Assembly (NCBI GenBank): GCA_049591295.1
Contig: JBAWEQ010000230.1
Coordinates: 2,882 to 66,881, forward strand
Reading direction: 5' to 3'
Length of the DNA: 64,000 nucleotides
Origin: Acidobacteriota bacterium
GTDB taxonomy: Bacteria; Acidobacteriota; UBA4820; DSQY01
The position numbers were made by a program, and so were the translations under genes. Each line of letters starts with the position of its first letter. Position 1 is the first letter of the stretch. Shown piece after piece: positions 3,218 to 56,306 of this stretch. The notes beneath the pieces were generated by a model. The model had not been told where the DNA came from and searched no databases. It saw only the letters and a program-made list of their open reading frames with translations.

Positions 3218-4342
3218 ATGCGTTTCGGTGTTCCCAAGGAATGCGCGATTCAGCCGAACTGTGACGAGCGCCGGGTGGGACTTTCGCCCGCCGGCTGCCG
3301 GGATCTGGTGGCCATGGGGGCCGAGCTGTACATCGAAAGCGGCGCGGGAGCACCGGCGGGATTCCTCGACGAGGCCTACCGCAGGGTGGGAGCCCAGGTG
3401 GTCTACTCCCGGGAGGAGGTCTTCGGCCGCTCGGACATGGTGGTCAAGATCGGGAGGCCCACGATGGAGGACCTGGAGCTCATGTCTCCGGGGTCCGGCA
3501 TCATGGCCTTCCTCCACCTCGCCCTGGCCGGCGACGCCTACACCGCGAAGCTCGCCGAGCGCGGGGTGACGGCCATCGGATACGAAATCATCCAGGAGGG
3601 CGACGGGACGCTTCCCGTCCTCAAGATCTCCTCCGAGATCGCGGGCAAGATGGCCCCCCAGATCGCCGGGAGGCTCCTGGAGACCGGGGCCGGCGGTATG
3701 GGCATCCTGCTGGGCGGAGCCCCGGGCATTCCTCCGGCGGACGTGGTGATCATGGGGGCCGGAGTTCTGGGCTACCATGCGGCCCGCTCCTTCCTCGGGC
3801 TGGGCTGCTCCGTCTACGTCTTGGATATTTCGCAGATCAAGCTGGAAGCCATCGACCGCGCCTTCGAGGGGCGGGTGGTGACGGCCCACGCCACGACCGA
3901 GAACGTGGAGAAGTTCTCCGCCTTCGCCGAGGTCCTGGTGGGGGCGGTCCTGGTGGCCGGCGAGATCGCCCCCATCATCGTGACCCGCGAGATGGTCCAG
4001 CGCATGCGGCCGGGCAGCGTGATCATCGATTTCTCCTTCGACCAGGGGGGCTGCGTGGAGACCACGCGCATGCAGGGTCCGGCCGGCGGCGTCTTCGTGC
4101 GCGAGGGGGTCCTCCACTTCGCCGTGCCCAACTGCCCCTCCTACGTGGCGAGGACCTCCACCTACGCCCTGACCTACGCCCTGCTGCCCTTCCTCAAGAG
4201 CATGCAGGAGAAGGGCCTCAAGGAGGCGCTCCGGACCTGGGCGGATCTGCGGCGCGGCTGTTACGTGTATGAGGGGAGCGCGGTGAGCCGCCACGTCACG
4301 AGCAGTCCCGCCGACCTGAAGCGGCTGCTGGGGGAGGGCTGA
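3218..4342 (+). CDS. ald: Alanine dehydrogenase (AlaDH/PNT family)
   Basis: MRFGVPKE... N-terminus typical of Ald, ATG at 3218; NAD-binding Gly-rich motif GAGVLG. The upstream part of ORF 3140..4342 (GTG start) is unsupported. Confidence 0.7.
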   Translation: MRFGVPKECAIQPNCDERRVGLSPAGCRDLVAMGAELYIESGAGAPAGFLDEAYRRVGAQVVYSREEVFGRSDMVVKIGRPTMEDLELMSPGSGIMAFLHLALAGDAYTAKLAERGVTAIGYEIIQEGDGTLPVLKISSEIAGKMAPQIAGRLLETGAGGMGILLGGAPGIPPADVVIMGAGVLGYHAARSFLGLGCSVYVLDISQIKLEAIDRAFEGRVVTAHATTENVEKFSAFAEVLVGAVLVAGEIAPIIVTREMVQRMRPGSVIIDFSFDQGGCVETTRMQGPAGGVFVREGVLHFAVPNCPSYVARTSTYALTYALLPFLKSMQEKGLKEALRTWADLRRGCYVYEGSAVSRHVTSSPADLKRLLGEG

Positions 4343-4345
4343 GCC

Positions 4346-5641
4346 ATGGCATGGATCGACGGATACAAGGCGAAGCTCTGCTCGGCCGATGAGGCCGTGT
4401 CGCGCATCAAGTCGAACGACTGGGTGTGGCTGAGCGGGAACGCCGCCGCCCCCTTCCTCCTCATGGAGGCGCTGGGCCGACGCGCGCCGGAACTGCAAAA
4501 CGTCACCCTCTCCCACGTGCTCCTCATGGGCGAGGACCCCCTGTCCAAGCCGGGCATGGAGAAGGCCTTCCACCACAACTCCCTCTTCGTCGGGCCCGCG
4601 GACCGGCCTTCGGTGAACGACGGGCGCTCCGCGTACGTGCCCATCCACCTGCACATGATCCCCAAGGCCATCCGTACGGGGGCCTGCCGGGTTGACGTGG
4701 CCATGATCCAGTGTTCCCCTCCCGACGAGCACGGCTTCATGAGCCTGGGGCTGGAGGTGATGGCCCAGAAGGCCGCCGTGGAGATGGCCAAGACCGTCAT
4801 CGTCCAGGTGAACGACCAGATGCCCAGAACGCTCGGGGACTCCTTCCTGCACGTCTCGAAGGCCGCCCACATCGTGGAGCACAGCTTCCCCCTGCTGGAG
4901 CTCCGCGGGAAGGAGGCCACGGAGGTGGAGCGGAAGATCGGCGCCCTCATCGCCGAGATGATCCCCGATGGCGCGACCCTTCAGATGGGCATCGGCGGCA
5001 TCCCCGATGCCGTGCTCACGCTCCTGGAGGGCAAACGCGACCTGGGAATCCATACCGAGATGATCTCGGACGGGCTGGTGCGGGCCATGGAGCAGGGGAT
5101 CATCACCGGAAACAAGAAGACCCTGCACCCGGGCAAGGTGGTCGCCACCTTCATCCTGGGCACACGGAAGCTCTACGACTTCGTCCACGACAACCCGCTC
5201 TTCGAGGTCCACCCCGTGGACCACACCAACGATCCCTTCATCATCGCCCAGAACGACAACATGGTGGCCATCAACTCGGCCCTGGAGGTGGACCTGACGG
5301 GCCAGGTCTGCTCGGACTCCATCGGTACCTACATCTACAGCGGCTTTGGGGGGCAGCTGGACTTCATCCGCGGCGCGGCGGCCAGCAAGGGGGGCAAGCC
5401 CATCATCGCCCTCCCCTCCACGGCCAAACAGGGCACCATGTCGCGCATCGTACCCAAGCTCAAGGAGGGGTCGGGCGTGGTCACCACGCGGGCGGACGTC
5501 CACTACGTGGTCACGGAGCACGGAGCGACCAACCTCTGGGGCAAAAACCTGAGCGAGCGCGCCAAGGCCCTCATCGCCATCGCGGACCCCGCCTTCAAGG
5601 AGACGCTGGAAAAGGAGGCCCGGGAGCGCCACCTTATCTAA
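4346..5641 (+). CDS. Acetyl-CoA hydrolase/transferase family protein (4-hydroxybutyrate CoA-transferase-like)
   Basis: 431 aa with conserved family motifs (GIGGIPDAV, SGFGGQLDF); GGGAGGG RBS before the ATG; 3-nt gap after the upstream gene. Confidence 0.85.
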   Translation: MAWIDGYKAKLCSADEAVSRIKSNDWVWLSGNAAAPFLLMEALGRRAPELQNVTLSHVLLMGEDPLSKPGMEKAFHHNSLFVGPADRPSVNDGRSAYVPIHLHMIPKAIRTGACRVDVAMIQCSPPDEHGFMSLGLEVMAQKAAVEMAKTVIVQVNDQMPRTLGDSFLHVSKAAHIVEHSFPLLELRGKEATEVERKIGALIAEMIPDGATLQMGIGGIPDAVLTLLEGKRDLGIHTEMISDGLVRAMEQGIITGNKKTLHPGKVVATFILGTRKLYDFVHDNPLFEVHPVDHTNDPFIIAQNDNMVAINSALEVDLTGQVCSDSIGTYIYSGFGGQLDFIRGAAASKGGKPIIALPSTAKQGTMSRIVPKLKEGSGVVTTRADVHYVVTEHGATNLWGKNLSERAKALIAIADPAFKETLEKEARERHLI

Positions 5642-8329: not shown

Positions 8330-10282
8330 ATGGAGGCTCGAGATGAAGGCTGGGGAGTAGGCGTGGCTGGTGGAGGAGGGCCCGAGACGCGGAAATCCCT
8401 CTCCGAGGTGCACAGCAGCGTCCACGTGCCGTGGACCGGCAATCTGTTGCGCCGCATCTTCGCCGTGGCGGGTCCGGCATACCTCGTCAGCGTGGGCTAC
8501 ATGGACCCGGGGAACTGGGCCACGGACCTGGCTGCAGGGGCCCACTACAACTATGCCCTGCTCTGGGTGCTCCTCATGTCCAACCTGATGGCCGTGCTGT
8601 TGCAGGCCCTGGCGGCACGGCTTGGCGTGGTGCGCGGCCTGGACCTGGCCCAGGCCTGCCGGAGAGAGTATCCACGCCCGGTGAACGCGGCCCTGTACGT
8701 GCTCTGCGAGATAGCCATCACCGCCTGCGACCTGGCGGAGGTCATCGGTTCGGCCATCGCGCTGAAGCTCCTCTTCGGCCTGCCGATGGTGTGGGGCGTG
8801 CTGATCACGGGGGCCGACACCTTCGCGCTCCTCTTCCTGAGCCACCTCGGGATCCGGAAGATGGAGGCCTTGATCCTCGGCCTCATCACGGTTATCGGCA
8901 CCGGTTTTCTCGTGGAGATCCTGTTGGCCAGACCCGAGTGGGGCGGCGTGGCAAGAGGATTCCTCCCGATCCTGCCCGACAAGGCGGCCCTCTTCGTCGC
9001 CATCGGAATGCTGGGGGCGACGGTCATGCCCCACAACCTCTACCTGCACAGCTCCCTGGTCCAGAGCAGGACCATCGGGGACACCCTGAAGGAGAAATGG
9101 CAGGCCATCAAGCTCAATACGCTGGACTCCGCGGTGGCCCTGAACATGGCTTTCCTCGTAAACGCCGCCATCCTCATCATGGCGGCGGCCGTCTTCTACC
9201 GCTCGGGGCACCGGGAGGTGGCGGAGATCCAGGACGCCTACCGTTTGCTGGAACCCATCCTCGGCGTGGCAGTAGCTCCCGTGGCCTTCGCGTTGGCCCT
9301 TCTGGCCTCAGGCCAAAGCTCAACCATCACGGGCACCCTGGCGGGCCAGATCGTGATGGAGGGCTTCCTCAACATCCGCATCGCGCCCTGGCTGCGGCGC
9401 CTCATCACGCGGCTGCTGGCCATCGTCCCCGCGGTCCTGACGCTCATCTACTTCGGCGAGCGGGGCACGGGCCCCCTCCTGGTCCTTTCTCAGGTGGTCC
9501 TTTCCCTGCAGCTCCCCTTCGCCATCATCCCGCTCGTGCACTTCGTCTCCGACAGGAAGCAGATGGGCGAACTGGCCATCGGCCGGCCCACGAAGGTCCT
9601 GGCGTGGGTCACGGCCGCCGTCGTGGTCGTTCTGAACGCCAAGCTGGTATCCGACTGGCTCGCGGAGTGGACCCACGCCGCGGGAGACCGGGCTCTCTGG
9701 ATCCTTCTGGTGGCCGTCCCACTCAACCTGGCCGTCGGCGGCCTTTTGCTGTACGTTACGGTCAAGCCTTGGGTGGGGGGCCTGGCTCGGCGTGCGCCAG
9801 CGGCCCCGCGGATGGGAGTGCACGCCCCCTCGGAGGGGTTGGACCTGGAGATGGCCGCCAGTCCGTACAAGAAGATCGCGGTTGCCCTGGACTTCTCGGG
9901 CCGGGACGGAGCCATCCTGAAGGAGACCCTGAAGATGGCCGGCGACGGTCGTCCGGAGCTGGCGCTCATGCACGTCGTCGAGAGTGCCGGGGCTCGGTTC
10001 CTGGGAAAGGACTCGGCTGACGAGGAGAGCCAGCACGACGCCGAGCGCCTGGAGGGCTACGCCGAGACGCTGAGAGCGAAGGGCTTCAAGGTAACGACGA
10101 AGCTCGGCAGGGGCAAGCCGGTGCCCGTACTGGCGGCCATGATCGAGGAGTTCGGGCCCGACCTGGTGGTCCTGGGCGCCCACGGCCACCGCTTCTTGCT
10201 CGACCTCTTCCTCGGCTCCACCGCCGACGCGCTCCGCCACCGCATCCAAACCAGCGTCCTCGTGGTCGGCAAGGGACGCTGA
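8330..10282 (+). CDS. NRAMP-family divalent metal (Mn2+/Fe2+) transporter fused to a C-terminal universal stress protein (UspA) domain
   Basis: 650 aa. N-terminal ~450 aa carry NRAMP signatures (GYMDPGNWATDL, MPHNLYLHS). C-terminal ~140 aa are a UspA fold (KKIAVALDFS...LVVLGAHGHRFLLDLFLGSTAD...VLVVG). GGAGG 6 nt before the ATG. Confidence 0.85.
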   Translation: MEARDEGWGVGVAGGGGPETRKSLSEVHSSVHVPWTGNLLRRIFAVAGPAYLVSVGYMDPGNWATDLAAGAHYNYALLWVLLMSNLMAVLLQALAARLGVVRGLDLAQACRREYPRPVNAALYVLCEIAITACDLAEVIGSAIALKLLFGLPMVWGVLITGADTFALLFLSHLGIRKMEALILGLITVIGTGFLVEILLARPEWGGVARGFLPILPDKAALFVAIGMLGATVMPHNLYLHSSLVQSRTIGDTLKEKWQAIKLNTLDSAVALNMAFLVNAAILIMAAAVFYRSGHREVAEIQDAYRLLEPILGVAVAPVAFALALLASGQSSTITGTLAGQIVMEGFLNIRIAPWLRRLITRLLAIVPAVLTLIYFGERGTGPLLVLSQVVLSLQLPFAIIPLVHFVSDRKQMGELAIGRPTKVLAWVTAAVVVVLNAKLVSDWLAEWTHAAGDRALWILLVAVPLNLAVGGLLLYVTVKPWVGGLARRAPAAPRMGVHAPSEGLDLEMAASPYKKIAVALDFSGRDGAILKETLKMAGDGRPELALMHVVESAGARFLGKDSADEESQHDAERLEGYAETLRAKGFKVTTKLGRGKPVPVLAAMIEEFGPDLVVLGAHGHRFLLDLFLGSTADALRHRIQTSVLVVGKGR

Positions 10283-10458
10283 GCGGGGGAGCGGAGCCTC
10301 CCATTCCACCGGTATCCCAATTGCCTTCGATTCATCAGGGCCGGGTCGTGGAGAGGCAGCCCCGCGGATGGCGGGACTTGAAGGGGGACTCGGGGCTAGT
10401 GTCCTGTCTCATTGGTTCCTTGAACAAGCTTGGGCGGTGTGACAGGACACGAAGGGGT

Positions 10459-10490
10459 GCGGGGAAGGCACTTCCCCGCTCTTTCGGGGT
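10459..10490 (+). terminator. Candidate intrinsic terminator (GC hairpin plus U-run) downstream of the NRAMP-Usp gene
   Basis: 9-bp stem gcggggaag/cttccccgc with a 3-nt loop, followed by TCTTTCGGGG. Lies about 180 nt after the stop, so the assignment is tentative. Confidence 0.3.
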
Positions 10491-10590
10491 AACAGCCTGC
10501 CGGAGGCAGGCGTCCTAGGGGCGGAGCCCCTTGGGAAGTGTGGCGTCTCTGGCCCAACCCAATGATTCAAGTTATTCCTGAGACGCCACA

Positions 10591-10890
10591 CTAGATCCCC
10601 AGGCCGCTGAGGGTGTCGACGACCTGTGCAACGGCCCAGGCGAGGTCGGGGTGGCTGGTCTCGAACAGGGCCATGGAGTCTTGCAGGCGCTCGCGCAGTG
10701 AGTGCTCGCGCTGGAAGGGGGGCTCGCCCGGGTTTTCAAGGAGCTCCCGGGTGTCCCGCATGAGGTCGCGAAGCAGCTCCCGGGTAGGCTCGTCGACGTT
10801 CCTGGCCTGCTGGAGCTGGTCGTGAAGCGCCTGAAGCTTCTCCCTGAGCTCCTCCGGGTTCTGAACGGGGACTTGCTTCTCGTCCGGCAT
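10591..10890 (-). CDS. DUF4404 family protein
   Basis: Start moved to the internal ATG (MPDEKQ...) because AAGGAGG sits 7 nt upstream; helical, charged ~100-aa protein matching DUF4404-like composition. Confidence 0.65.
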   Translation of the reverse strand: MPDEKQVPVQNPEELREKLQALHDQLQQARNVDEPTRELLRDLMRDTRELLENPGEPPFQREHSLRERLQDSMALFETSHPDLAWAVAQVVDTLSGLGI

Positions 10891-10959: not shown

Positions 10960-13377
10960 CTACATCAGGACGTAGGGATCCACCTCCACCAGCATGTCGC
11001 GTCCGCTGTGCGGGCCGAGGGGGCCGTCCAGGAGGCCCGCGAGAAGAGTCTGGAGGCGCCTGCGCTCCCGGCTCCTCAGAAGGATGTGCTTGCGGTAGCG
11101 CCCCTCCAGGCGGGGGATGGGAGGGTCCACCGGGCCGAGGAGCCTGACCTCGCGGTCGGCACAGGCGCGCAGGTGCCGCTCGGCCTGGCGGGACAGGTCC
11201 TCGACCTTGGCGGGGTCGGCGTGGCGGAACTCGATCCGCGCCAGGGCCGCGGCGGGAGGGTAACCCACTGTTTTCCTGTACCGGATGTCCTTCTCGTAGA
11301 AGCTCACGAAGTCGTGGGTGGTGGCGGCCTGGACGGCGTAGTGCTCCGGATGGAAGGACTGGAGGACCACCCGGCCGGGAAGGCGGCCCCGTCCGGCACG
11401 GCCGGCGGCCTGCGTGATGAGCTGGAAGGTGCGCTCGGCGGCCCGAAAGTCGGGCAGCCCCAGCAAGAAGTCGGCGGAGAGGATGCCCACGAGCGTGACG
11501 TTGGGGATGTCGTGGCCCTTGGCCACCATCTGCGTGCCCGCCATGACGGAGATGCGCCCGGCCTCGAAGTCCCGCCAGAGTGTGTCGAAGGCCCGGGCGG
11601 TCCTCACCGCGTCGCGGTCCATGCGGGCCACCCGCACGCCGGGGAGAGCCTGTGCCACGGCCTCCTCGACCTTCTCCGTGCCCTCGCCCAGAAACTGGAG
11701 GATCTCCCCCCCGCAGAAGGGGCACTGCTGGGGGATCGGGATCTGGCGGCCGCAGTAGTGGCACTTGAGGTGAAGGGCCTTGCGGTGGAAGGTCATGGCC
11801 ACCGCGCAGGCCTCGCACTGGATGGTCCGTCCGCACTGCCGGCACAGGACGAAGGTGGCGTATCCCAGCCGGTTCCTCAAGAGGACCGCCTGGCGGCCCT
11901 GGGCGAGCTCCTCCTGGAGCGCCCCGGCGAGGGCCCGGGACAGGGTCGTCTTGGCGCCCGTGGCGCGGAACTCCTCCCGCATGTCCACGACCTGGACCGG
12001 AGGCAGGACCGCCGTTCCGGTCCGTTCGGGCAGGGTGAGCAGGCTGTATTTTCCCGCCTCGGTGGCGTTGTAGTAGGACTCCACGGAGGGGGTCGCCGAG
12101 CCCAGGACCACGGGGACTCCGGCCAGCATGGCCCGAATCACCGCCATGTCCCGCGCGTGGTAGCGGGGGAAGTCCTGCTGTTTGTAGCTTCCGTCGTGCT
12201 CCTCGTCCACCACCACGAGCCTGAGGTCGGGCAGGGGAGCGAAGAGGGCCGAGCGGGGGCCGATCACCACCTTGGCGCCGCCCCTGGCCACGCGCAGCCA
12301 CTGCCGAACCCTCTCGTGTTCGGTCATGGAGGAGTGGAGAATGGCCACGGAGCTACCGAAACGCTCGATCAGGCGCCGCGCGAGAAACGACGCCAGCGAG
12401 ATCTCGGGCACGAGGTAGAGCGCCGTTCCACCGGAGGCCAGGGCCTCCTCCATGAGCCTCAGGTAGACTTCGGTCTTTCCCGATCCCGTGACGCCGAACA
12501 GGAGAAAGGCCCGGTGGCGGGCCTCGCGCAGACAGTCGCGCACGGCGCACACCGCCTCCTCCTGGGCGCCGTTGAGCACGTGCGGCGAGGCGCGGCCGGG
12601 GAGCCTCGCCGTGAGAAGGTCGAAGAGCTCCACCCAACCCGCCTCCGCCATCTCCGAGAGGACGTGCTGGGGAACCCTCGCGGCGTGCGCCACCTGGGAC
12701 ACGGTGGGAAAACCGCGCTGCTCGAAATTGAGGAGCGCCGAGAGGGTCTTGGCGAAGAATTTCGGCTGGCCCTGATCGGAAGCCATGGCCCGCGCCTCAT
12801 CGGGAGGTATCAGGAGGGCTACGCGGTCCTGCCCCGCATAGCGGCGGCGGGCAGTCCACTGCGTATGCTCGATCACCAGTTCCTGGCGCACCGCCTCCTG
12901 GACCCAGAGCGTCGCGGAGGGCCCGAGGAGCGCCCTTAGGGTCGCCAGGCTCCGGGGACCGCCGCGGAGGGCCTCTGCGAGCGGACCGAGGGTGTGGCCG
13001 TCCGGCAGATCGCAGCCGGGCACCCATTCGTAGCTGGAGCGGGCGGAGGGATCGAGCCCCGAGGGGTAGGCGCAGTGGAGGACCGACCCCCATGAGACCA
13101 GGTAGTAGTCGGCGATCCAGCGGGTCAGGGCCAGGATGTCGGGCGGAAGGAGCGGGCTTCGGTCCAGCACCTCTTCCAGGGGGCGGAGCGTCTCGGGCGG
13201 TGCGCTCCCCGGATCGTCCACCGCGATGCCGATGTGGTGGGTCCTGGCGAAGGGAACGCGCACCCGGCACCCGGGCCCGGGGACGGGCTGGCCGGCCGGG
13301 ACGGCGTAGGTGAAGGTGCCGCGGACGGGGATGGGGAGGGCGACCTGCACGCTGGGCCCCCGGGTCCCACCGGTCAT
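10960..13377 (-). CDS. priA: Primosomal protein N' (replication restart helicase PriA)
   Basis: Walker A GVTGSGKTEVY; DEEH box; C-terminal Cys4 zinc-finger cluster (CRQCG...CEAC...CHYCG...CPFCG). Start set at ATG 13377, overlapping the lpxK stop (ATGA coupling). The ORF-track N-terminal extension is in-frame read-through. Confidence 0.9.
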   Translation of the reverse strand: MTGGTRGPSVQVALPIPVRGTFTYAVPAGQPVPGPGCRVRVPFARTHHIGIAVDDPGSAPPETLRPLEEVLDRSPLLPPDILALTRWIADYYLVSWGSVLHCAYPSGLDPSARSSYEWVPGCDLPDGHTLGPLAEALRGGPRSLATLRALLGPSATLWVQEAVRQELVIEHTQWTARRRYAGQDRVALLIPPDEARAMASDQGQPKFFAKTLSALLNFEQRGFPTVSQVAHAARVPQHVLSEMAEAGWVELFDLLTARLPGRASPHVLNGAQEEAVCAVRDCLREARHRAFLLFGVTGSGKTEVYLRLMEEALASGGTALYLVPEISLASFLARRLIERFGSSVAILHSSMTEHERVRQWLRVARGGAKVVIGPRSALFAPLPDLRLVVVDEEHDGSYKQQDFPRYHARDMAVIRAMLAGVPVVLGSATPSVESYYNATEAGKYSLLTLPERTGTAVLPPVQVVDMREEFRATGAKTTLSRALAGALQEELAQGRQAVLLRNRLGYATFVLCRQCGRTIQCEACAVAMTFHRKALHLKCHYCGRQIPIPQQCPFCGGEILQFLGEGTEKVEEAVAQALPGVRVARMDRDAVRTARAFDTLWRDFEAGRISVMAGTQMVAKGHDIPNVTLVGILSADFLLGLPDFRAAERTFQLITQAAGRAGRGRLPGRVVLQSFHPEHYAVQAATTHDFVSFYEKDIRYRKTVGYPPAAALARIEFRHADPAKVEDLSRQAERHLRACADREVRLLGPVDPPIPRLEGRYRKHILLRSRERRRLQTLLAGLLDGPLGPHSGRDMLVEVDPYVLM

Positions 13378-34540: not shown

Positions 34541-34587
34541 CGGATCAACGGGAAACAGAAGCGGGGGGAACGTCTCCATTCCCCCCG
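34541..34587 (-). terminator. Candidate terminator of the tonB-exbB-exbD-exbD operon
   Basis: 8-bp G/C stem gcgggggg/ccccccgc with a 12-nt loop at 34560-34587, followed on the minus strand by CUUCUGUUUCCCGUU; about 70 nt after the exbD stop. Confidence 0.35.
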
Positions 34588-34653: not shown

Positions 34654-35058
34654 TCAGTTCAGCACGAAGCCGATCGTCTCCACCTTACCCTGGCCCCTGG
34701 CGATGTCCAGGGCCTTGATGACCGTCTCGTAGGCGACCTTGTTGTCGGCGTCGACAAAGAGGACCTTGTCAGCCCGGGTGGCGTAGATGGCACCGAGCTT
34801 CTCCCCAAGATCCTGCATGGTGACGGGGCCCTTGTTGATGGCCATGCTGCCGTCCGCGCTGATCTGTAGCACGATCGCGTTGCTGTTCGACGGGTTGGTG
34901 CTGGGCGGGGCCTTCGGGGGCACCTGGGTTTCGAAGCCCTTCTGCATGATGGGTGTGATCACCATGAAGATGATCAGCAACACCAGCAGAATGTCCACCA
35001 GGGGCGTGATGTTGATGTCCGACTTGGGGCCGCCGCTGCTCTTCACGTCCATGCTCAT
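34654..35058 (-). CDS. exbD: Biopolymer transport protein ExbD/TolR
   Basis: 134 aa; INITPLVDILLVLLIIFMV TM segment and ExbD periplasmic domain. Confidence 0.85.
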   Translation of the reverse strand: MSMDVKSSGGPKSDINITPLVDILLVLLIIFMVITPIMQKGFETQVPPKAPPSTNPSNSNAIVLQISADGSMAINKGPVTMQDLGEKLGAIYATRADKVLFVDADNKVAYETVIKALDIARGQGKVETIGFVLN

Positions 35059-35072
35059 GGCTTAACCCCTTC

Positions 35073-35540
35073 TTAGCCGTTGCCCGCGACCGCGGAGGCA
35101 GCGTTCCCGGTAACCACGTTGCCCTTCGCGTCCACGTGCTGGGAGACGAGCCCGACGCCCTTGAATCCGACGGCCTGCGTGTAGCGGAGAACGTCCTTGA
35201 CCTGGCCGAAGTCCAGGCGCTTGTCACCCTTGATGTAGACGGCGCGGCCGGGATTCCTGGCGTAAGCCTCCTGCAGGTTGTCCTTCAGGACGTCGATGGG
35301 CACCCACTTGTCCCCGTAATAGATCTTGCCGTCGGCCTGAATGCTGATGGTGACGTTGGATTCCTTCTCTGGCTCGTTGGACGGGTTCATGGCCGTGGGC
35401 AGCTGAACCGGGACGCCCTTCTGGAGCAGGGGCGTGACCACCATGAAGATGATCAGGAGCACCAGGCACACGTCGCAGAAGGGCGTGACGTTGATATCAT
35501 TCTTGAAACCCCCACTGCCGTTGCCTACATCCATACTCAT
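35073..35540 (-). CDS. exbD: Biopolymer transport protein ExbD/TolR (second paralogue)
   Basis: Start at internal ATG (MSMDVGNG..., AGGAGG 5 nt upstream); INVTPFCDVCLVLLIIFMV TM segment. Confidence 0.85.
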   Translation of the reverse strand: MSMDVGNGSGGFKNDINVTPFCDVCLVLLIIFMVVTPLLQKGVPVQLPTAMNPSNEPEKESNVTISIQADGKIYYGDKWVPIDVLKDNLQEAYARNPGRAVYIKGDKRLDFGQVKDVLRYTQAVGFKGVGLVSQHVDAKGNVVTGNAASAVAGNG

Positions 35541-35554
35541 GGTGACCTCCTGGG

Positions 35555-36229
35555 TTACTTCTCTTCGATGCCCGTGACCTTGATGAAGTGGTCCACCAAC
35601 TCGGAGGAGGCGTTGCTCATCTCGATGGAAATGAGGTCGGCCTTGTTGACGAAGTAGTTGTAGAACCACACCGCGGGAATGGCCACGAACAAGCCGAAGG
35701 CCGTGGTGATCAGGGCTTCGGAGATACCGCCGGCCACAGCGCCGATGCCGCCCGACCCGGTGAGGGCCATGCCGCGGAAGGCGTTGATGATGCCGATGAC
35801 CGTTCCGAACAGACCGACGAAGGGCGCCGTGGCGCCGATGGTGGCCAGGGAGCTCAGGCCGCGCTTCATCTCGGACGAGGTCTTCACGGTGGCGCGCTCG
35901 ATGGCCCGCTTCGCCGCCTCGATGACGTTGTACTGGACGCCGCCGCTCGTGTTGGCCTTGAACTCCAAGAGCGCGGCGGAGAAGACCTTGGCGAGGTGGC
36001 TATTCTTGGACTTCTTGGCCAGGTCGATGCACTCATCCAGCTTGTTCTGCTTCAGCAGGTTGCCCACCTTGCCGATGAACTCCAGCGACTGCTTCTTGGC
36101 CGACCGGAAGACAATGAAGCGGTCGATGAACACCCAGATGGAAATCAAGCTCATGAGCATGAGCAGCATGGCCACGGACTTGGCCAGAAAACCCATACTG
36201 TTCCAGAGGTCAATAATGCTGAAACCCAT
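35555..36229 (-). CDS. exbB: MotA/TolQ/ExbB proton-channel family protein
   Basis: 224 aa; three TM helices and the conserved LATIGATAPFVGLFGTV motif. Local GC (~52%) is well below the window average. Confidence 0.9.
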   Translation of the reverse strand: MGFSIIDLWNSMGFLAKSVAMLLMLMSLISIWVFIDRFIVFRSAKKQSLEFIGKVGNLLKQNKLDECIDLAKKSKNSHLAKVFSAALLEFKANTSGGVQYNVIEAAKRAIERATVKTSSEMKRGLSSLATIGATAPFVGLFGTVIGIINAFRGMALTGSGGIGAVAGGISEALITTAFGLFVAIPAVWFYNYFVNKADLISIEMSNASSELVDHFIKVTGIEEK

Positions 36230-53103: not shown

Positions 53104-53700
53104 CTAGGGCTCGCCCGCCAGGAGGGCGTGCCATTCTTCCTGGTTGTTCACATTGGTCAGCGAGCGCGGGTCGCAGCCGCCGGCTTCGGCCCCCTCCTCG
53201 TCCACCAGGTCGGCATTCAGGGCGGATAGCAGGTGGTGGGCCGTGGCATCGCCTGAGCGAAGCGCGCTCTCCACGAAGGGCCAAGCGGTCTTTGGATAAC
53301 AGGCGGGAAGGGGATGGACCCTTCCGTTCACGAAGGGTGCGCAGGGCCGGCCCGTCTTCATGCAGCGCCCGACCAAGAGGTCCAGCCATTGGAATGTGAG
53401 GAGGGGAGTGTCCACGGCGACGCAGAGGACCTCGGAGAAGGAGGCCCCGATCAGCGCGGCGTGGATCCCCCCCAGCACGCCCATGCCGGGAATCCGGTCG
53501 GGCACCCGGGGCACCCTCAGTTCGACGGGAAACGGCTCGGGCGCCACCACGAAGACCTCACCGCAAACCTCCCCCAGAAGGAACAGGGCGCGATCCAGGA
53601 GGGTCAGGCCGTCAAGGACCAGCAACCGTTTGTCCTGGCCCATTCTCCGAGAGCGCCCTCCGGCGATGAGGGCGCCCGTCGCTTCAGGGTTTCTGGGCAT
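53104..53700 (-). CDS. mobA: Molybdenum cofactor guanylyltransferase MobA
   Basis: N-terminal LIAGGRSRRMG.DK motif, ~198 aa. Confidence 0.8.
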   Translation of the reverse strand: MPRNPEATGALIAGGRSRRMGQDKRLLVLDGLTLLDRALFLLGEVCGEVFVVAPEPFPVELRVPRVPDRIPGMGVLGGIHAALIGASFSEVLCVAVDTPLLTFQWLDLLVGRCMKTGRPCAPFVNGRVHPLPACYPKTAWPFVESALRSGDATAHHLLSALNADLVDEEGAEAGGCDPRSLTNVNNQEEWHALLAGEP

Positions 53701-53817
53701 GATCGAGCTCCTGGGCCCGGAAGGGTGCGGGCGCCCCGGGGACGCGATAACTCCCCCTTGGCAATTTGGGGCACGGTTCCTAAGCTGACCAGCCCGGGCT
53801 CTTCAGCCTGAAGGGGG

Positions 53818-53917
53818 CCCCTTCGCCGCGCCGCCTCAGGTGGGCAGGGCCTGGGCCGCGAGTTCGAGGACGTCGTGGGTGGCGAATTCCTCATGCCCCG
53901 TCTCGCCGGCGGCGTCG
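53818..53917. repeat. Diverged (~93% identical) ~100-nt direct repeat of the 3' end of the downstream Fe-S oxidoreductase gene; partner copy at 54052-54151
   Basis: Direct alignment shows about 6-7 mismatches over 100 nt. The relic copy still reads as a gene end (..RDAAGETGHEEFATHDVLELAAQALPT*) on the minus strand but has no upstream gene body. GC hairpins at 53965-53984 and 54023-54048 lie between the copies. Confidence 0.75.
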
Positions 53918-54068
53918 CGCGGGGCGCTCCTCAAGGAGGGGCTCGGCCGCCCCTCCTCGACGCTCCCCCCGCTTTGGCGGGGGGAGCTGCTCCTCCGTGC
54001 CCTCGCGTGGGGATGCCTCTGAGCGGGGGAACCTTCCCGTTCCCCCGCACCCCCTTCGCCGCGCCGCC

Positions 54069-56108
54069 TCAGCTGGGCAGGGCCTGGGCCGCGAGTTCGA
54101 GGACGTCGTGGGTAGCGAACCCCTCATGCCCCGTCTCACCGGCGGCGTTGTTCATCATGACGTTGCAGAAGGGGCAGGCGACGGCCACGCCCTGCGCTTT
54201 GGTTTCGAGGGCCTGCTCCAGGCGCAGGTGGTTGACCCGCTTCCCGAGCTTTTCCTCCAGCCACATTCGCCCGCCGCCGGCTCCGCAGCACATGGCGTTC
54301 TTCCCGCTGTGGTCCATCTCCGTGAGGCTCAGGCCGGGAATGGCCTTCAGGATGGCCCTTGGGGCTTCGACCTGGTCGTTGTACCGGCCGAGGTAGCAGG
54401 GGTCGTGGTAGGTCAGGCTCTCGCGCACCTCTTGGGTGAGCTTCAGGCGGCCCTCCGCCACCAGGCGGGCCACCAGCTCCGTTCCGTGGACCACCTCGTA
54501 GTGGCCGCCGAATGAGGGGTACTCGTTCTTGAGGGTGTTCAGGCAGTGGGGGCAGTTGGTGACGATCTTCTTGACCTTGTATCCGTTGAGGGTCTCGATG
54601 TTGGTCTCGGCCAGGGTTTGGAAGAGGTACTCGTTGCCCAGCCGTCGGGCCGAGTCGCCCGTGCAAGTCTCCTCCTCGCCCAGGATGGCGAACTTGATCC
54701 CCGCCGCGCGGAGTAGCTTGACCAGGGCCACGGAGACCTTCTTGCCCCTGTCCTCGTAGGAGCCGGCGCATCCCACCCAGAACAGGAATTCGGCGTCCGG
54801 TTCCTCCGCCATGGTGGGAACCTCGAGGCCCTCGGCCCACTTGGCGCGGTCGGCCTGGGCCATGTTCCACGGGTTGCCCTGGCGCTCCATGCCCTTGAAG
54901 CCCACCTGGGCCTCCGCCGGGAAATTGCTCTCCTCCAGGGTGAGGTAGCGCCGCATGCCCACGAGCTTGTCCACGAACGTGATGTGGAGCGGACAGGCGT
55001 GTTCGCAATAGCCGCAGGTGGTGCAGGCCCAGATCGTGTCCTCGCTGATGCAGCCGCCGAGCTGCTCTTGCGTCCAGGGCGGGTGCTCCTCCTTCCGCTG
55101 CCACACGGAGCCCGCCGGCACCGGCCCGCCGATGACGAGGCGGTTCTCCGGCACGGCCTTGTCCTGGGCCATGTCCGCCAGGGGGGTGTCGTACAGGTAG
55201 TCCCGCAGGTCGTTGCCGTAATTCTTGGGGCGGAGAGGTTTGCCCGTGAGCGTGGTGGGACATACCTCGGTGCAGCGCCCGCATTCGGTGCAGGTGTAGA
55301 AATCCAGCATCTGCTTCCAGGTGAAGTCCTGGATCTTGTTGACGCCGAAGTGCTCGGCCTCGAGGTTCATGGGCTTGATGTTCCTGGTCGGTTCGAGTTC
55401 CCGGAAGTAGACGTTGAAGAGGGCGGTCAGGACGTGGAAGTGCTTGGAGTAGGGGAGGAAGTTCAGAAAGCCGAAGAGGATCACCAGGTGGAACCACCAC
55501 ATGGTGTGATAGAGCAGAGAGAGGGAGGAGCTGCCCATGCCCCCGAGAAGGGCCGCCACGAATTCACCCGCAGGGGACCAGGCAGCCCAGGCGGGGTTGT
55601 GTAGCGCGATGAAGGCGCCGTCGGCCAGCAGGTCCGTCACCATGAGGCCGCCGATGAGCGAGAGGGTGGCCCACGCATCCCAGGAGTTCTCCAGCCGGTC
55701 GGGAGGGAAAAAGAGCCGCCGGGCGGAGGCCATGAGGATCCCCAGGATCACCAGCACCTCGAAGATGTCCTTGGTGACCTGGTAGCCCAGGCCCCAGAAG
55801 CCCATCATCTCGGTCAGGTGAAAGGAGGGGAAGAGGCCTTCGGCCACCAGCGACAGCGACCGCAGCGCCAGGACCATGAAGCCCCAGAAGATCAGGAGGT
55901 GGAAGAAGCCGGCGTACCGGTCGCGCACCATGCGCTTCTGGACGAAGGCATACAGGATGAGGCCCTTCAGCCTTTCCCAGGGCCTGTCGAAGCGGTTGTC
56001 CGGGAGCCCGGCCATGAGGGCGCCGATCCGAACCCGCGCCGTGTTGGCGAAGAGCGCCAGTGATCCGATGACGAACGCCCAAAAGAGCCAGGTTTCCACT
56101 GGGTGCAT
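54069..56108 (-). CDS. Membrane-anchored (Fe-S)-binding oxidoreductase, HdrD/DsrK-like (NarI-like TM domain + 4Fe-4S ferredoxin + CCG domains)
   Basis: N-terminal ~5 TM helices with His residues; CTECGRCTEVCP and CTTCGYCEHACP ferredoxin motifs; two CCG Cys-rich repeats. Start at ATG 56108 (GGAGG RBS); the longer ORF-track N-terminus is rejected. Confidence 0.8.
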   Translation of the reverse strand: MHPVETWLFWAFVIGSLALFANTARVRIGALMAGLPDNRFDRPWERLKGLILYAFVQKRMVRDRYAGFFHLLIFWGFMVLALRSLSLVAEGLFPSFHLTEMMGFWGLGYQVTKDIFEVLVILGILMASARRLFFPPDRLENSWDAWATLSLIGGLMVTDLLADGAFIALHNPAWAAWSPAGEFVAALLGGMGSSSLSLLYHTMWWFHLVILFGFLNFLPYSKHFHVLTALFNVYFRELEPTRNIKPMNLEAEHFGVNKIQDFTWKQMLDFYTCTECGRCTEVCPTTLTGKPLRPKNYGNDLRDYLYDTPLADMAQDKAVPENRLVIGGPVPAGSVWQRKEEHPPWTQEQLGGCISEDTIWACTTCGYCEHACPLHITFVDKLVGMRRYLTLEESNFPAEAQVGFKGMERQGNPWNMAQADRAKWAEGLEVPTMAEEPDAEFLFWVGCAGSYEDRGKKVSVALVKLLRAAGIKFAILGEEETCTGDSARRLGNEYLFQTLAETNIETLNGYKVKKIVTNCPHCLNTLKNEYPSFGGHYEVVHGTELVARLVAEGRLKLTQEVRESLTYHDPCYLGRYNDQVEAPRAILKAIPGLSLTEMDHSGKNAMCCGAGGGRMWLEEKLGKRVNHLRLEQALETKAQGVAVACPFCNVMMNNAAGETGHEGFATHDVLELAAQALPS

Positions 56109-56306
56109 GGGTAGATCCTCCCCCTTGAACGCGCCCCGCGCGCGGCTACTGGGTAGCATAGAGTCCCGGCGGCTCCCTGTCAATGTATTTGAATGCTCAT
56201 CCATGGCCGGTGTTCAGAGCCCATCCATCCGTGAAGCCAAAGCACTACATGGCTTCCGTTGGGTGGATTCCTCCGGCACTGGCCGCTTGTGGCAGTGAGC
56301 AACTGC

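Follow-up and report, generated by a model that had tools for sequence, protein, structure and literature searches.

A dispersed structured non-coding element coupled to duplication of upstream gene ends in Acidobacteriota

Why should a bacterial gene be followed, a short distance past its stop codon, by a second copy of its own 3′ end? The question is raised by a locus, here called W, in a 64,000-nt stretch of an Acidobacteriota contig (JBAWEQ010000230.1); the whole stretch is referred to as the window, and coordinates are window positions unless another locus is named. On the minus strand a DUF4388 gene is followed by a gene for a CCG/4Fe-4S ("HdrD-like") oxidoreductase, by the repeat region and by a mobA-like gene (Table 1). 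In the direction of transcription the working end of the oxidoreductase gene (U) comes first, then a 135-nt spacer, then the extra, displaced end (D) and, after a further 117 nt, mobA. The two copies, each 98 nt long (26 codons, a TGA stop and 18 nt past the stop), are identical at 93 positions (94.9%), with a start-to-start offset of 233 nt. The edges of the repeat are sharp on both sides (within-window BLAST E = 8e-40), the 64 kb contain no third copy, and the pair is the sole example of a near-identical short-range direct repeat across the window. The original prediction, made from the letters of the window, had described this duplication as ~100 nt long and ~93% identical with an offset of 234 nt; the duplication exists, with the slightly different dimensions given here. 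The same prediction had both copies ending in a stop on the minus strand, with translations that are correct, and placed two strong GC hairpins between them; both hairpins are present (54023-54048 and 53963-53986), together with a third (~53932-53959) and a short terminal one.

The spacer turned out to be a copy of a structured element, E, which belongs to a dispersed family coupled to duplication of the upstream gene end, with a variable number of units and with displaced ends that are coding-competent. Scanning metagenome contigs with hairpin 1 as the search key returned 49 loci (designated, like the other loci named below, by L numbers), all of which contain this hairpin by the search criterion and among which diverged members are under-sampled; about 20 of them align over the whole spacer. 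A covariance model finds 21 full-length copies at 95-136 bits in Acidobacteriota metagenome contigs, all sequences considered here being metagenome assemblies. The core at W is matched at 53913-54072 (111.7 bits, E = 7e-24), and the window holds one further copy (10436-10559). An Nramp-Usp fusion gene (8330-10282) on the same strand ends 154 nt ahead of the latter, which is followed by a separate 11-bp hairpin (10539-10594) and showed no flanking duplication in the duplication test. E consists of a core of ~135 nt and a 5′ arm of ~20 nt; its consensus has five helices and conserved single-stranded motifs, and the family alignment is bounded by GCGARGGGG and GCGCGAC. Paired positions are filled by pairing nucleotides in 93.5% of the alignment cells, versus 40-57% when the partners are slid, and compensatory double changes occur at 13 pairs. 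The covariation score is 0.266 versus 0.113 in shuffled alignments, none of the 500 shuffles reaching the observed value. Wobble cells comprise 41 G.U and 8 A.C, a bias indicating that the gene-sense strand, as RNA or as single-stranded DNA, is the one that folds. The 171-nt stretch at W has a predicted folding energy of -116.8 kcal/mol, compared with -88.7 +/- 4.9 for shuffled sequences (z = -5.7).

Catalogues of known elements returned nothing comparable. The best match of the W region in Rfam 15, including the molybdenum cofactor (Moco) riboswitch that would be expected close to mob/moa genes, has E = 0.27 and 19.9 bits against a gathering score of 100, and that of the L120 copy has E = 0.037 and is to an unrelated family. 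Searches of a plasmid collection (blastn) and of viral contigs (by pattern) gave no match to E, a tRNA and transfer-messenger RNA search at seven loci found just one unrelated tRNA-Val, and no description of such an element was found in the literature using generic terms, which is weak evidence of absence. E is a previously uncatalogued dispersed structured non-coding family. A scan of the region (minus strand, 53500-54300) for sigma-70-like promoters and for the consensus of intrinsic terminators found neither, and the hairpins of W are trailed by purine-rich sequence, a pattern different from the GC hairpin plus U-tract of intrinsic terminators. With no Rfam match and no U-tract, riboswitch and intrinsic terminator readings were rejected. 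The original prediction had assigned the duplicated end to the mobA promoter region; the repeat does lie between the oxidoreductase gene and mobA, and the scan showed no promoter consensus there.

Several smaller observations concern sequences related or adjacent to E. A second class of matches has only GTCCGCGAAGCGGAC-CGGTCGAGGGGG and hairpin 1, followed by unrelated sequence (L089, L094, L096, L097, L103, L108, L110, L113, L122, L123, L125 and L126). One of these (L122) lies between rplL and rpoB, and another (L113) consists of two tandem 71-nt units; in other bacteria of high GC content the class possibly represents either a simpler relative resembling repetitive extragenic palindromes (REPs) or E's 5′ module. 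In the window an isolated hairpin-1-like hairpin, CGGGGGGAA-TGGAGACG-TTCCCCCCG, is present on the minus strand at 34562-34587 (16 bits, E = 0.04 against the model). A conserved repeat, TTGCGCT(G/C)CGGCCGAAGTGAATTCGGCCTCGCGCG, forms a hairpin around a GAATTC centre near E copies at three unrelated loci (L086 ~4600-4640, L101 ~13010-13050 and L112 ~11760-11795) and may represent a second dispersed element family. In addition, purine-rich tandem repeats of 6-9 nt, such as GGATTTCGGAATT, GTGAAAAGTGAAAAG, GGGGACAGGGGACAG and CGAGACGCGAGACG, often follow a unit, being found downstream of D or E at L008 (~3700-3740), L009, L087, L090, L092, L106, L115 and L099.

The association of E with gene-end duplication is not peculiar to W. 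Significant direct repeats flank 16 of the 21 E copies (z = 6-74), and the downstream member begins between -8 and +4 nt from the 3′ end of the model (GCGCGAC); at W the junction between E and D is ambiguous by 2 nt (AC). The duplicated piece, 38-100 nt long, comprises the last 13-32 codons of the upstream gene and its stop. The genes concerned are unrelated to each other: HdrD-like CCG oxidoreductase, FtsX/MacB permease, radical-SAM/SPASM protein, thiolase and dihydrolipoyl dehydrogenase (Lpd). At L117, downstream of xerD, E is flanked by a non-coding repeat (a hairpin), and at L120 a terminator hairpin is duplicated, the sequence after E resembling the 3′ half of a tRNA whose upstream partner has been lost at the contig start. 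E points in the same direction as the gene upstream; the 5′ arm mostly begins 0-30 nt past the stop codon, while the segment from the stop codon to the core varies from 4 to 112 nt. The duplication therefore belongs to E and not to the HdrD-like gene. Read-through or in-frame translation into D was considered and rejected, because the offsets of 233, 223, 225, 278 and 215 nt share no frame. At W the listed 32-aa TTG-started open reading frame (ORF) MRSAPRDAAGETGHEEFATHDVLELAAQALPT (53836-53934, minus strand) is made up of the 3′ end of E and copy D; pseudo-ORFs of this kind are likely to be prone to mis-annotation.

Without exception the displaced ends have retained their frame, with an in-frame stop where U has its own. 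The identity of the stop codon (TAG, TGA or TAA) and the sequence past it often differ between U and D. In 14 comparisons of U with D the codon differences comprised 47 synonymous, 9 stop-to-stop and 13 nonsynonymous ones, whereas about 61% would be expected to be nonsynonymous if only U were constrained (P = 1.6e-12 against a constrained U and a neutral D). At the sister loci behind Lpd, FtsX and radical-SAM genes the displaced ends differ almost only synonymously, and at L114, where U and D have just 62% nucleotide identity, 21 of 24 residues and the stop are nevertheless conserved. The nonsynonymous changes are concentrated at the left edge of D, beside E. L112 and L121 come from the same metagenome, the former ending and the latter beginning within an E copy, and the two look like pieces of a single Lpd locus. 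When joined, they read gene-U0-tail-E1-D1-E2-D2, with three synonymous versions of the gene end. Retention of frame and stop together with synonymous divergence implies that U and D each diverged mostly while serving as working gene ends, and the patterns say that new ends enter at the left and older ones are pushed to the right. For the claim that the W copy itself has been maintained by purifying selection the counts give no support: W alone shows 2 synonymous and 2 nonsynonymous differences, and the HdrD-type loci pooled show 7 and 8.

Among the nearest relatives of W, which are 95-97% identical, variation sits at exactly this spot, where 0, 1 or 2 units of gene end plus E are found. In L001, L002 and L136/L137 there is only one gene end, and the flank found after D in W adjoins it directly. 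L129/L130, two independent assemblies, have U-spacer-D, in which the two ends are identical along 95 nt; L135 has the same arrangement and then a second, truncated spacer; L132-L134 have one truncated spacer and have lost mobA. What the synteny comparison proposed in the original prediction brought out was this series of single-end, one-unit and two-unit states, not the remnant of a paralogue. Farther away, L008, L009 and L099 (79% protein identity) have a homologous spacer of ~75% nucleotide identity and each its own gene-end copy, and most other relatives have an ordinary terminator hairpin in place of E. Gene-end copies show 0-5 differences within a genome versus 6-13 between genomes, from which it follows that the copies have been repeatedly made or homogenised.

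Three further observations were made among these relatives. In the L132-L135 sub-lineage E breaks off within hairpin 3 and there is no mobA-like gene, a convergent malic-enzyme gene following the oxidoreductase gene instead. E-less relatives keep GGCGGCGCGGCG(A/G/G)AG right past the stop (L011 ~3700-3730, L001 8133-8150 and L002 8085-8102); this sequence matches the 5′ arm and is either a footprint of past occupancy or a favoured target motif. Finally, two public records of metagenome-assembled genomes (MAGs) have runs of exactly 100 N between the gene-end copies (L062 8149-8248 and L009 8251-8350). These are most likely scaffold gaps caused by the repeat, which means that E breaks short-read assemblies.

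A link between the element and the piece that is duplicated is provided by the 5′ arm. The variable segment just 5′ of GCGARGGGG is complementary to coding sequence at the left edge of the duplication: the longest perfect match in a locus's own upstream 170 nt averages 9.0 nt versus 6.7 nt for non-native pairs (P = 1.4e-6), and the complementary site lies 53-77 nt upstream in 13/16 loci. L086, a locus without duplication, has a 13-nt arm match all the same. Two Lpd loci show a compensatory pair, L114 having CCTGCCACGCC/GGCGTGGCAGG and L121 CCAGCCACGCC/GGCGTGGCTGG, so that TGC or AGC in the gene is accompanied by GCA or GCT in the arm. At W the arm sequence GGCGGCG (54062-54068) can pair with CGCCGCC of either U (54141-54147) or D (53908-53914); in the predicted fold it pairs with the start of D, closing E.

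Taken together, these observations fit best with E being a non-coding module that is gained, lost and homogenised by recombination between gene-end copies, a reading to which we give roughly even chances. E resides in the 3′ untranslated region (UTR) of a gene, co-oriented with it, with the 5′ arm at or near the stop codon and the invariant 3′ end joined to a second gene end. Gene end, tail and E behave as a unit that accretes in tandem, the leftmost end being in use and the right-hand copies displaced. Recombination between the copies could then cause gain, loss and homogenisation and produce alleles with 0, 1 and 2 units. The coding state of displaced ends combined with their synonymous divergence suggests that the exchange can involve DNA from diverged relatives, D possibly serving as the right-hand homology arm of an unequal exchange even though the downstream regions differ. 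Such exchange would account for the identical middles, the decayed left edges and the right ends that have diverged synonymously and bear foreign tails. Single-copy alleles of the L001 type, in which an 18-nt solo arm is retained, would arise by deletion between U and D. W holds one full unit plus a displaced end with its solo 5′ arm. Tandem duplication of gene end plus E followed by loss of the second E was rejected as a general explanation; it fits the W clade (a solo arm behind D; two E copies in L135) but not loci with differing tails and stops.

The founding step of such a locus may be specific to the element. In it the fixed 3′ terminus of E would be joined to a GC-rich coding site that is complementary to the 5′ arm and lies ~65 nt upstream of it. 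A joining reaction specific to the element is suggested by the complementarity of arm and site, by the fixed 3′ end and by the AC microhomology (2 nt) at the junction; snap-back, rolling-circle and RNA-ligation schemes can all be envisaged for this step. One may go further and regard E as a new class of mobile element that picks its targets by base pairing between the 5′ arm and a ~10-nt site in the last ~25 codons, although we consider this unlikely. Pairing would set the 3′ end of E beside the site for a self-splinted or guide-directed joining at the level of RNA or single-stranded DNA. The insertion would be harmless if a full copy of the gene end were made, or carried, upstream of E, and the downstream copy would act as a portable homology arm with which the module could spread between species.

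A number of results weigh against the recombining module. Complementarity between arm and target is short and GC-rich; GC-rich arms pair promiscuously, and the duplex energies of the 5′ arm with the 3′ flank were -22.4 kcal/mol for native and -19.6 kcal/mol for non-native pairs. Three copies (L093, L104 and the one at 10436 in the window) have no duplication. Scrutiny of 14 loci for a mobility gene or enzyme nearby found none that recurs, only housekeeping neighbours. The pooled ratio of 7 synonymous to 8 nonsynonymous differences at HdrD-type loci fits a recent in-situ duplication that is decaying or homogenised. Homologous recombination over arms of 40-100 nt, or between ends of 62% identity as at L114, would be inefficient, and another joining activity may be needed. 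Loci of one gene family may share ancestry, so the counts of loci, alignment cells and codons given above do not represent independent events, and all the data stem from metagenome assemblies.

The alternative that survives best, itself rather improbable in our view, is that E and the gene-end fragment together constitute a miniature integrative element with the circular junction of the E 3′ end and the fragment as its attP. A recombinase encoded elsewhere (tyrosine/Xer-type, possibly working on folded single strands) would integrate it into a gene 3′ end, with the element providing the new stop codon plus tail and displacing the resident end. The architecture indeed resembles attL and attR: the gene is reconstituted, the displaced end is intact, stops and tails differ, the E/D junction is precise and arrays accrete at the left. 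A precise empty site exists as well, one copy is apparently followed by the 3′ half of a tRNA gene (its upstream partner lost at the contig start), and ends as different as those of L114 are hard to join by homologous recombination. However, no integrase is found in or beside any unit, the nearby XerD at L117 passing the equivalog cut-off as a housekeeping protein; the interior is only ~135-250 nt, and the alignment is without integron R''/R' boxes (RYYYAAC/GTTRRRY). An integrative element also leaves unexplained how one family acquired the ends of at least six different genes, and homogenisation of U and D within genomes requires homologous exchange anyway.

Somewhat less probable still is a non-autonomous retroelement resembling short interspersed nuclear elements (SINEs). 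Its RNA, with a fixed 3′ end, would be reverse-transcribed at a nick in the target gene after priming by microhomology, and a second nick 40-100 nt away would generate a long target-site duplication of variable length. The constant 3′ end combined with a stop-to-core segment of 4-112 nt, the variable duplication length (38-100 nt), the short microhomology at the 3′ junction and selection on the structure of the sense strand, as expected for RNA, all agree with retroposition. So do young-looking cases (W, L102 and L117) with identical non-coding flanks, and the HdrD loci taken alone (7:8) are compatible with the neutral, unused copy that a retroposon would leave. Across the family, however, an unused copy of the target site should decay neutrally, whereas the copies differ synonymously and have swapped stops (P = 1.6e-12). 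No reverse transcriptase is seen near any copy, although one could act in trans, and we know of no comparable bacterial system, which also counts against retroposition.

E might alternatively be a cis-acting 3′ UTR RNA, serving for instance as a stabiliser, a terminator or an insulator between the oxidoreductase gene and mobA, with the duplication as a by-product of replication slippage; we regard this as improbable. E keeps a fixed position and orientation with respect to the upstream gene, the fold is strong and conserved, the G.U bias is on the sense strand, and the 5′ arm pairs with the coding region even where nothing is duplicated (L086, 13 nt). Yet slippage would produce gene end plus E twice in tandem with identical tails, not synonymously diverged ends whose stops and tails differ; a U-tract terminator is absent, presence or absence in near-identical strains speaks against an essential role, and spread behind unrelated genes would still require a mechanism of mobility.

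The explanation offered by the original prediction, that D is all that remains of a paralogous second HdrD-like gene after deletion of its body, now appears very improbable. D does keep its frame and stop, and a Holophagaceae MAG contig (JADKJH010000001.1) carries two paralogues (L035 and L039). D, however, duplicates the end of the very same gene, being 95% identical to it and sharing lineage-specific states; its exact C-terminus (HEEFATHDVLELAAQALPT) occurs in no member of the cluster, the duplication begins exactly at the 3′ end of E as at 15 other loci, behind unrelated genes, and relatives with a single end join the same downstream flank. The prediction's alternative of a recombination scar was right in spirit, in that the second copy is a displaced gene end and recombination is involved. 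Its counter-hypothesis, a widespread REP-like repeat, was half borne out: the 98-nt repeat is not dispersed, whereas the sequence between its copies is a dispersed structured element. Scarcely credible, lastly, is an assembly artefact concatenating two strain variants of the gene end, for although the window derives from a MAG and 100-N gaps sit exactly at the repeat in L062 and L009, the same U-E-D order recurs in independent assemblies, samples and assemblers (L129 from NCBI, L130 from ENA with k141, L135, L008 and L099), the 135-nt interior is a conserved family member and not strain-variant sequence, and the repeat (95-98 nt) is shorter than the assembler k of 141.

The features of the window on which the analysis was based are listed in Table 1. 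The database protein for the oxidoreductase (P0124) begins at M33 (~56108) and from this residue on is identical to the NCBI MAG protein MGA9753029.1; its NCBIfam matches are all below cut-off. Elsewhere in the window a 125-nt direct repeat (34915-35039 and 35394-35518, 70% identity, offset 479) lies inside adjacent minus-strand genes (34654-35058 and 35073-35669), which look like tandem paralogues unrelated to E.

Table 1. Positions of the gene-end copies, element E and adjoining features in the window
Feature	Position	Strand	Basis
Gene for CCG/4Fe-4S "HdrD-like" membrane oxidoreductase	54069-56204	-	Longest ORF, 711 aa; Pfam CCG and Fer4 domains
Copy U, gene end in use; its 26 codons close with a stop (54069-54071), and the next 18 nt are the element 5′ arm	54051-54148	-	
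Site a, CGCCGCC, complementary to the 5′ arm and situated at the duplication's left edge	54141-54147	-	
Element 5′ arm, GGCGGCGCGGCGAAGGGG, including a′ = GGCGGCG at 54062-54068	54051-54068	-	Family alignment; fold
Core of structured element E, 135 nt: three GC hairpins and a terminal hairpin, ending in GCGCG(AC)	53916-54050	-	
Hairpin 1, GCGGGGGAAC-GGGAAG-GTTCCCCCGC	54023-54048	-	
Hairpin 2; sequence varies in the family with compensatory changes (helix 5: 5/6 pairs changed on both sides)	53963-53986	-	
Hairpin 3, GGAGGGGC-GGCCGA-GCCCCTCC (helix 6 in the covariation test)	53932-53959	-	
Copy D, displaced end; its 26 codons close with an in-frame TGA (53836-53838), and a second, "solo" 5′ arm follows (53818-53835)	53818-53915	-	
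Native spacer to the mobA-like gene, common to relatives without the E core	53701-53817	-	
mobA-like NTP transferase gene	53104-53700	-	
Second E-family member, shorter and diverged	10436-10559	+	Covariance model, 44.3 bits, E = 1.6e-8

Should the pattern hold across the family, E would represent an undescribed way for a tiny non-coding element to inhabit gene 3′ ends harmlessly. It is a new structured family for curation, with a testable long-range pairing to coding sequence, and its copies suggest that E may mark spots of repeated gene-end exchange between lineages, a route for homeologous exchange. In practical terms the pattern yields short pseudo-C-terminal ORFs and assembly gaps in Acidobacteriota MAGs, and the oxidoreductase-mobA interval of the window should be viewed as a polymorphic hotspot and not as a conserved promoter.

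How does E compare with systems already known? Two kinds can be set aside. A MITE (miniature inverted-repeat transposable element), likewise a small non-coding repeat, was rejected because the flanking repeat is 38-100 nt long and variable instead of a fixed 2-10 bp, and the only inverted repeat is that of the 5′ arm with the beginning of the duplicated segment. A diversity-generating retroelement, which also has a repeat where a gene ends, was rejected because the differences from D to U in the coding sense (C>T, AA>GG, C>T and C>G) are not adenine-specific; the flanking genes scanned for a reverse transcriptase, mobA-like and malic enzyme, contained none, no broader search of the window having been made. 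SINEs and other elements without long terminal repeats (non-LTR elements) that use target-primed reverse transcription share with E the constant 3′ end, the variable 5′ side, the variable duplication and the junction microhomology. They differ in that E has a bacterial host with no reverse transcriptase identified and in that its flanking copies differ synonymously, unlike simple target-site duplications.

REPs, bacterial interspersed mosaic elements (BIMEs) and REPINs are likewise GC-rich hairpins in 3′ intergenic regions, present in multiple copies per genome and prone to recombination. Measured against the usual REP, a palindrome of 20-40 nt in high copy number, E is extragenic, has at least two copies per 64 kb and a unit of ~150 nt, with hairpin-1-only matches in other contigs. 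In contrast to these repeats, E folds into five helices over ~150 nt and contains conserved single-stranded motifs; its orientation with respect to the upstream gene is fixed, and it is coupled to a gene-end duplication of 40-100 nt. With integron attC sites E shares a structured single-strand element right after the stop, conservation of structure exceeding that of sequence, and promoter-proximal addition. However, the E alignment has no R'' (RYYYAAC) or R' (GTTRRRY) boxes, neither an integron integrase nor attI was found, and the "cassette" at an E locus is a fragment of the neighbouring gene.

The architecture of E loci is close in kind to that of gene-3′-end integrative elements and cis-mobilizable elements (CIMEs), in which gene-end direct repeats are likewise found, the gene is reconstituted and the old end displaced, units accrete in tandem and precise empty alleles exist. 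The differences are that the interior of E is ~135-250 nt of non-coding hairpins with no integrase within any unit, and that a single E family is found after at least six genes unrelated to each other, the duplicated end being in each case that of the gene concerned. A further parallel is provided by the orphan C-terminal (CT) modules of Rhs and CdiA toxins, in which the new 3′ end lies at the left and older ends persist downstream as fragments whose first part is a short piece of the conserved gene; these displacement arrays are explained by invoking homologous recombination. At E loci, too, the new end is at the left and the old ends are kept downstream, but these ends differ synonymously and specify one and the same peptide, toxin/immunity polymorphism is absent, and a conserved structured element separates the copies. 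Read as exchange between lineages, E would be a small-scale analogue of toxin C-terminal displacement without a change of protein. Both of its ingredients, a repetitive structured element and the displacement of gene ends, are known, and that the chemistry of its insertion is categorically new seems doubtful.

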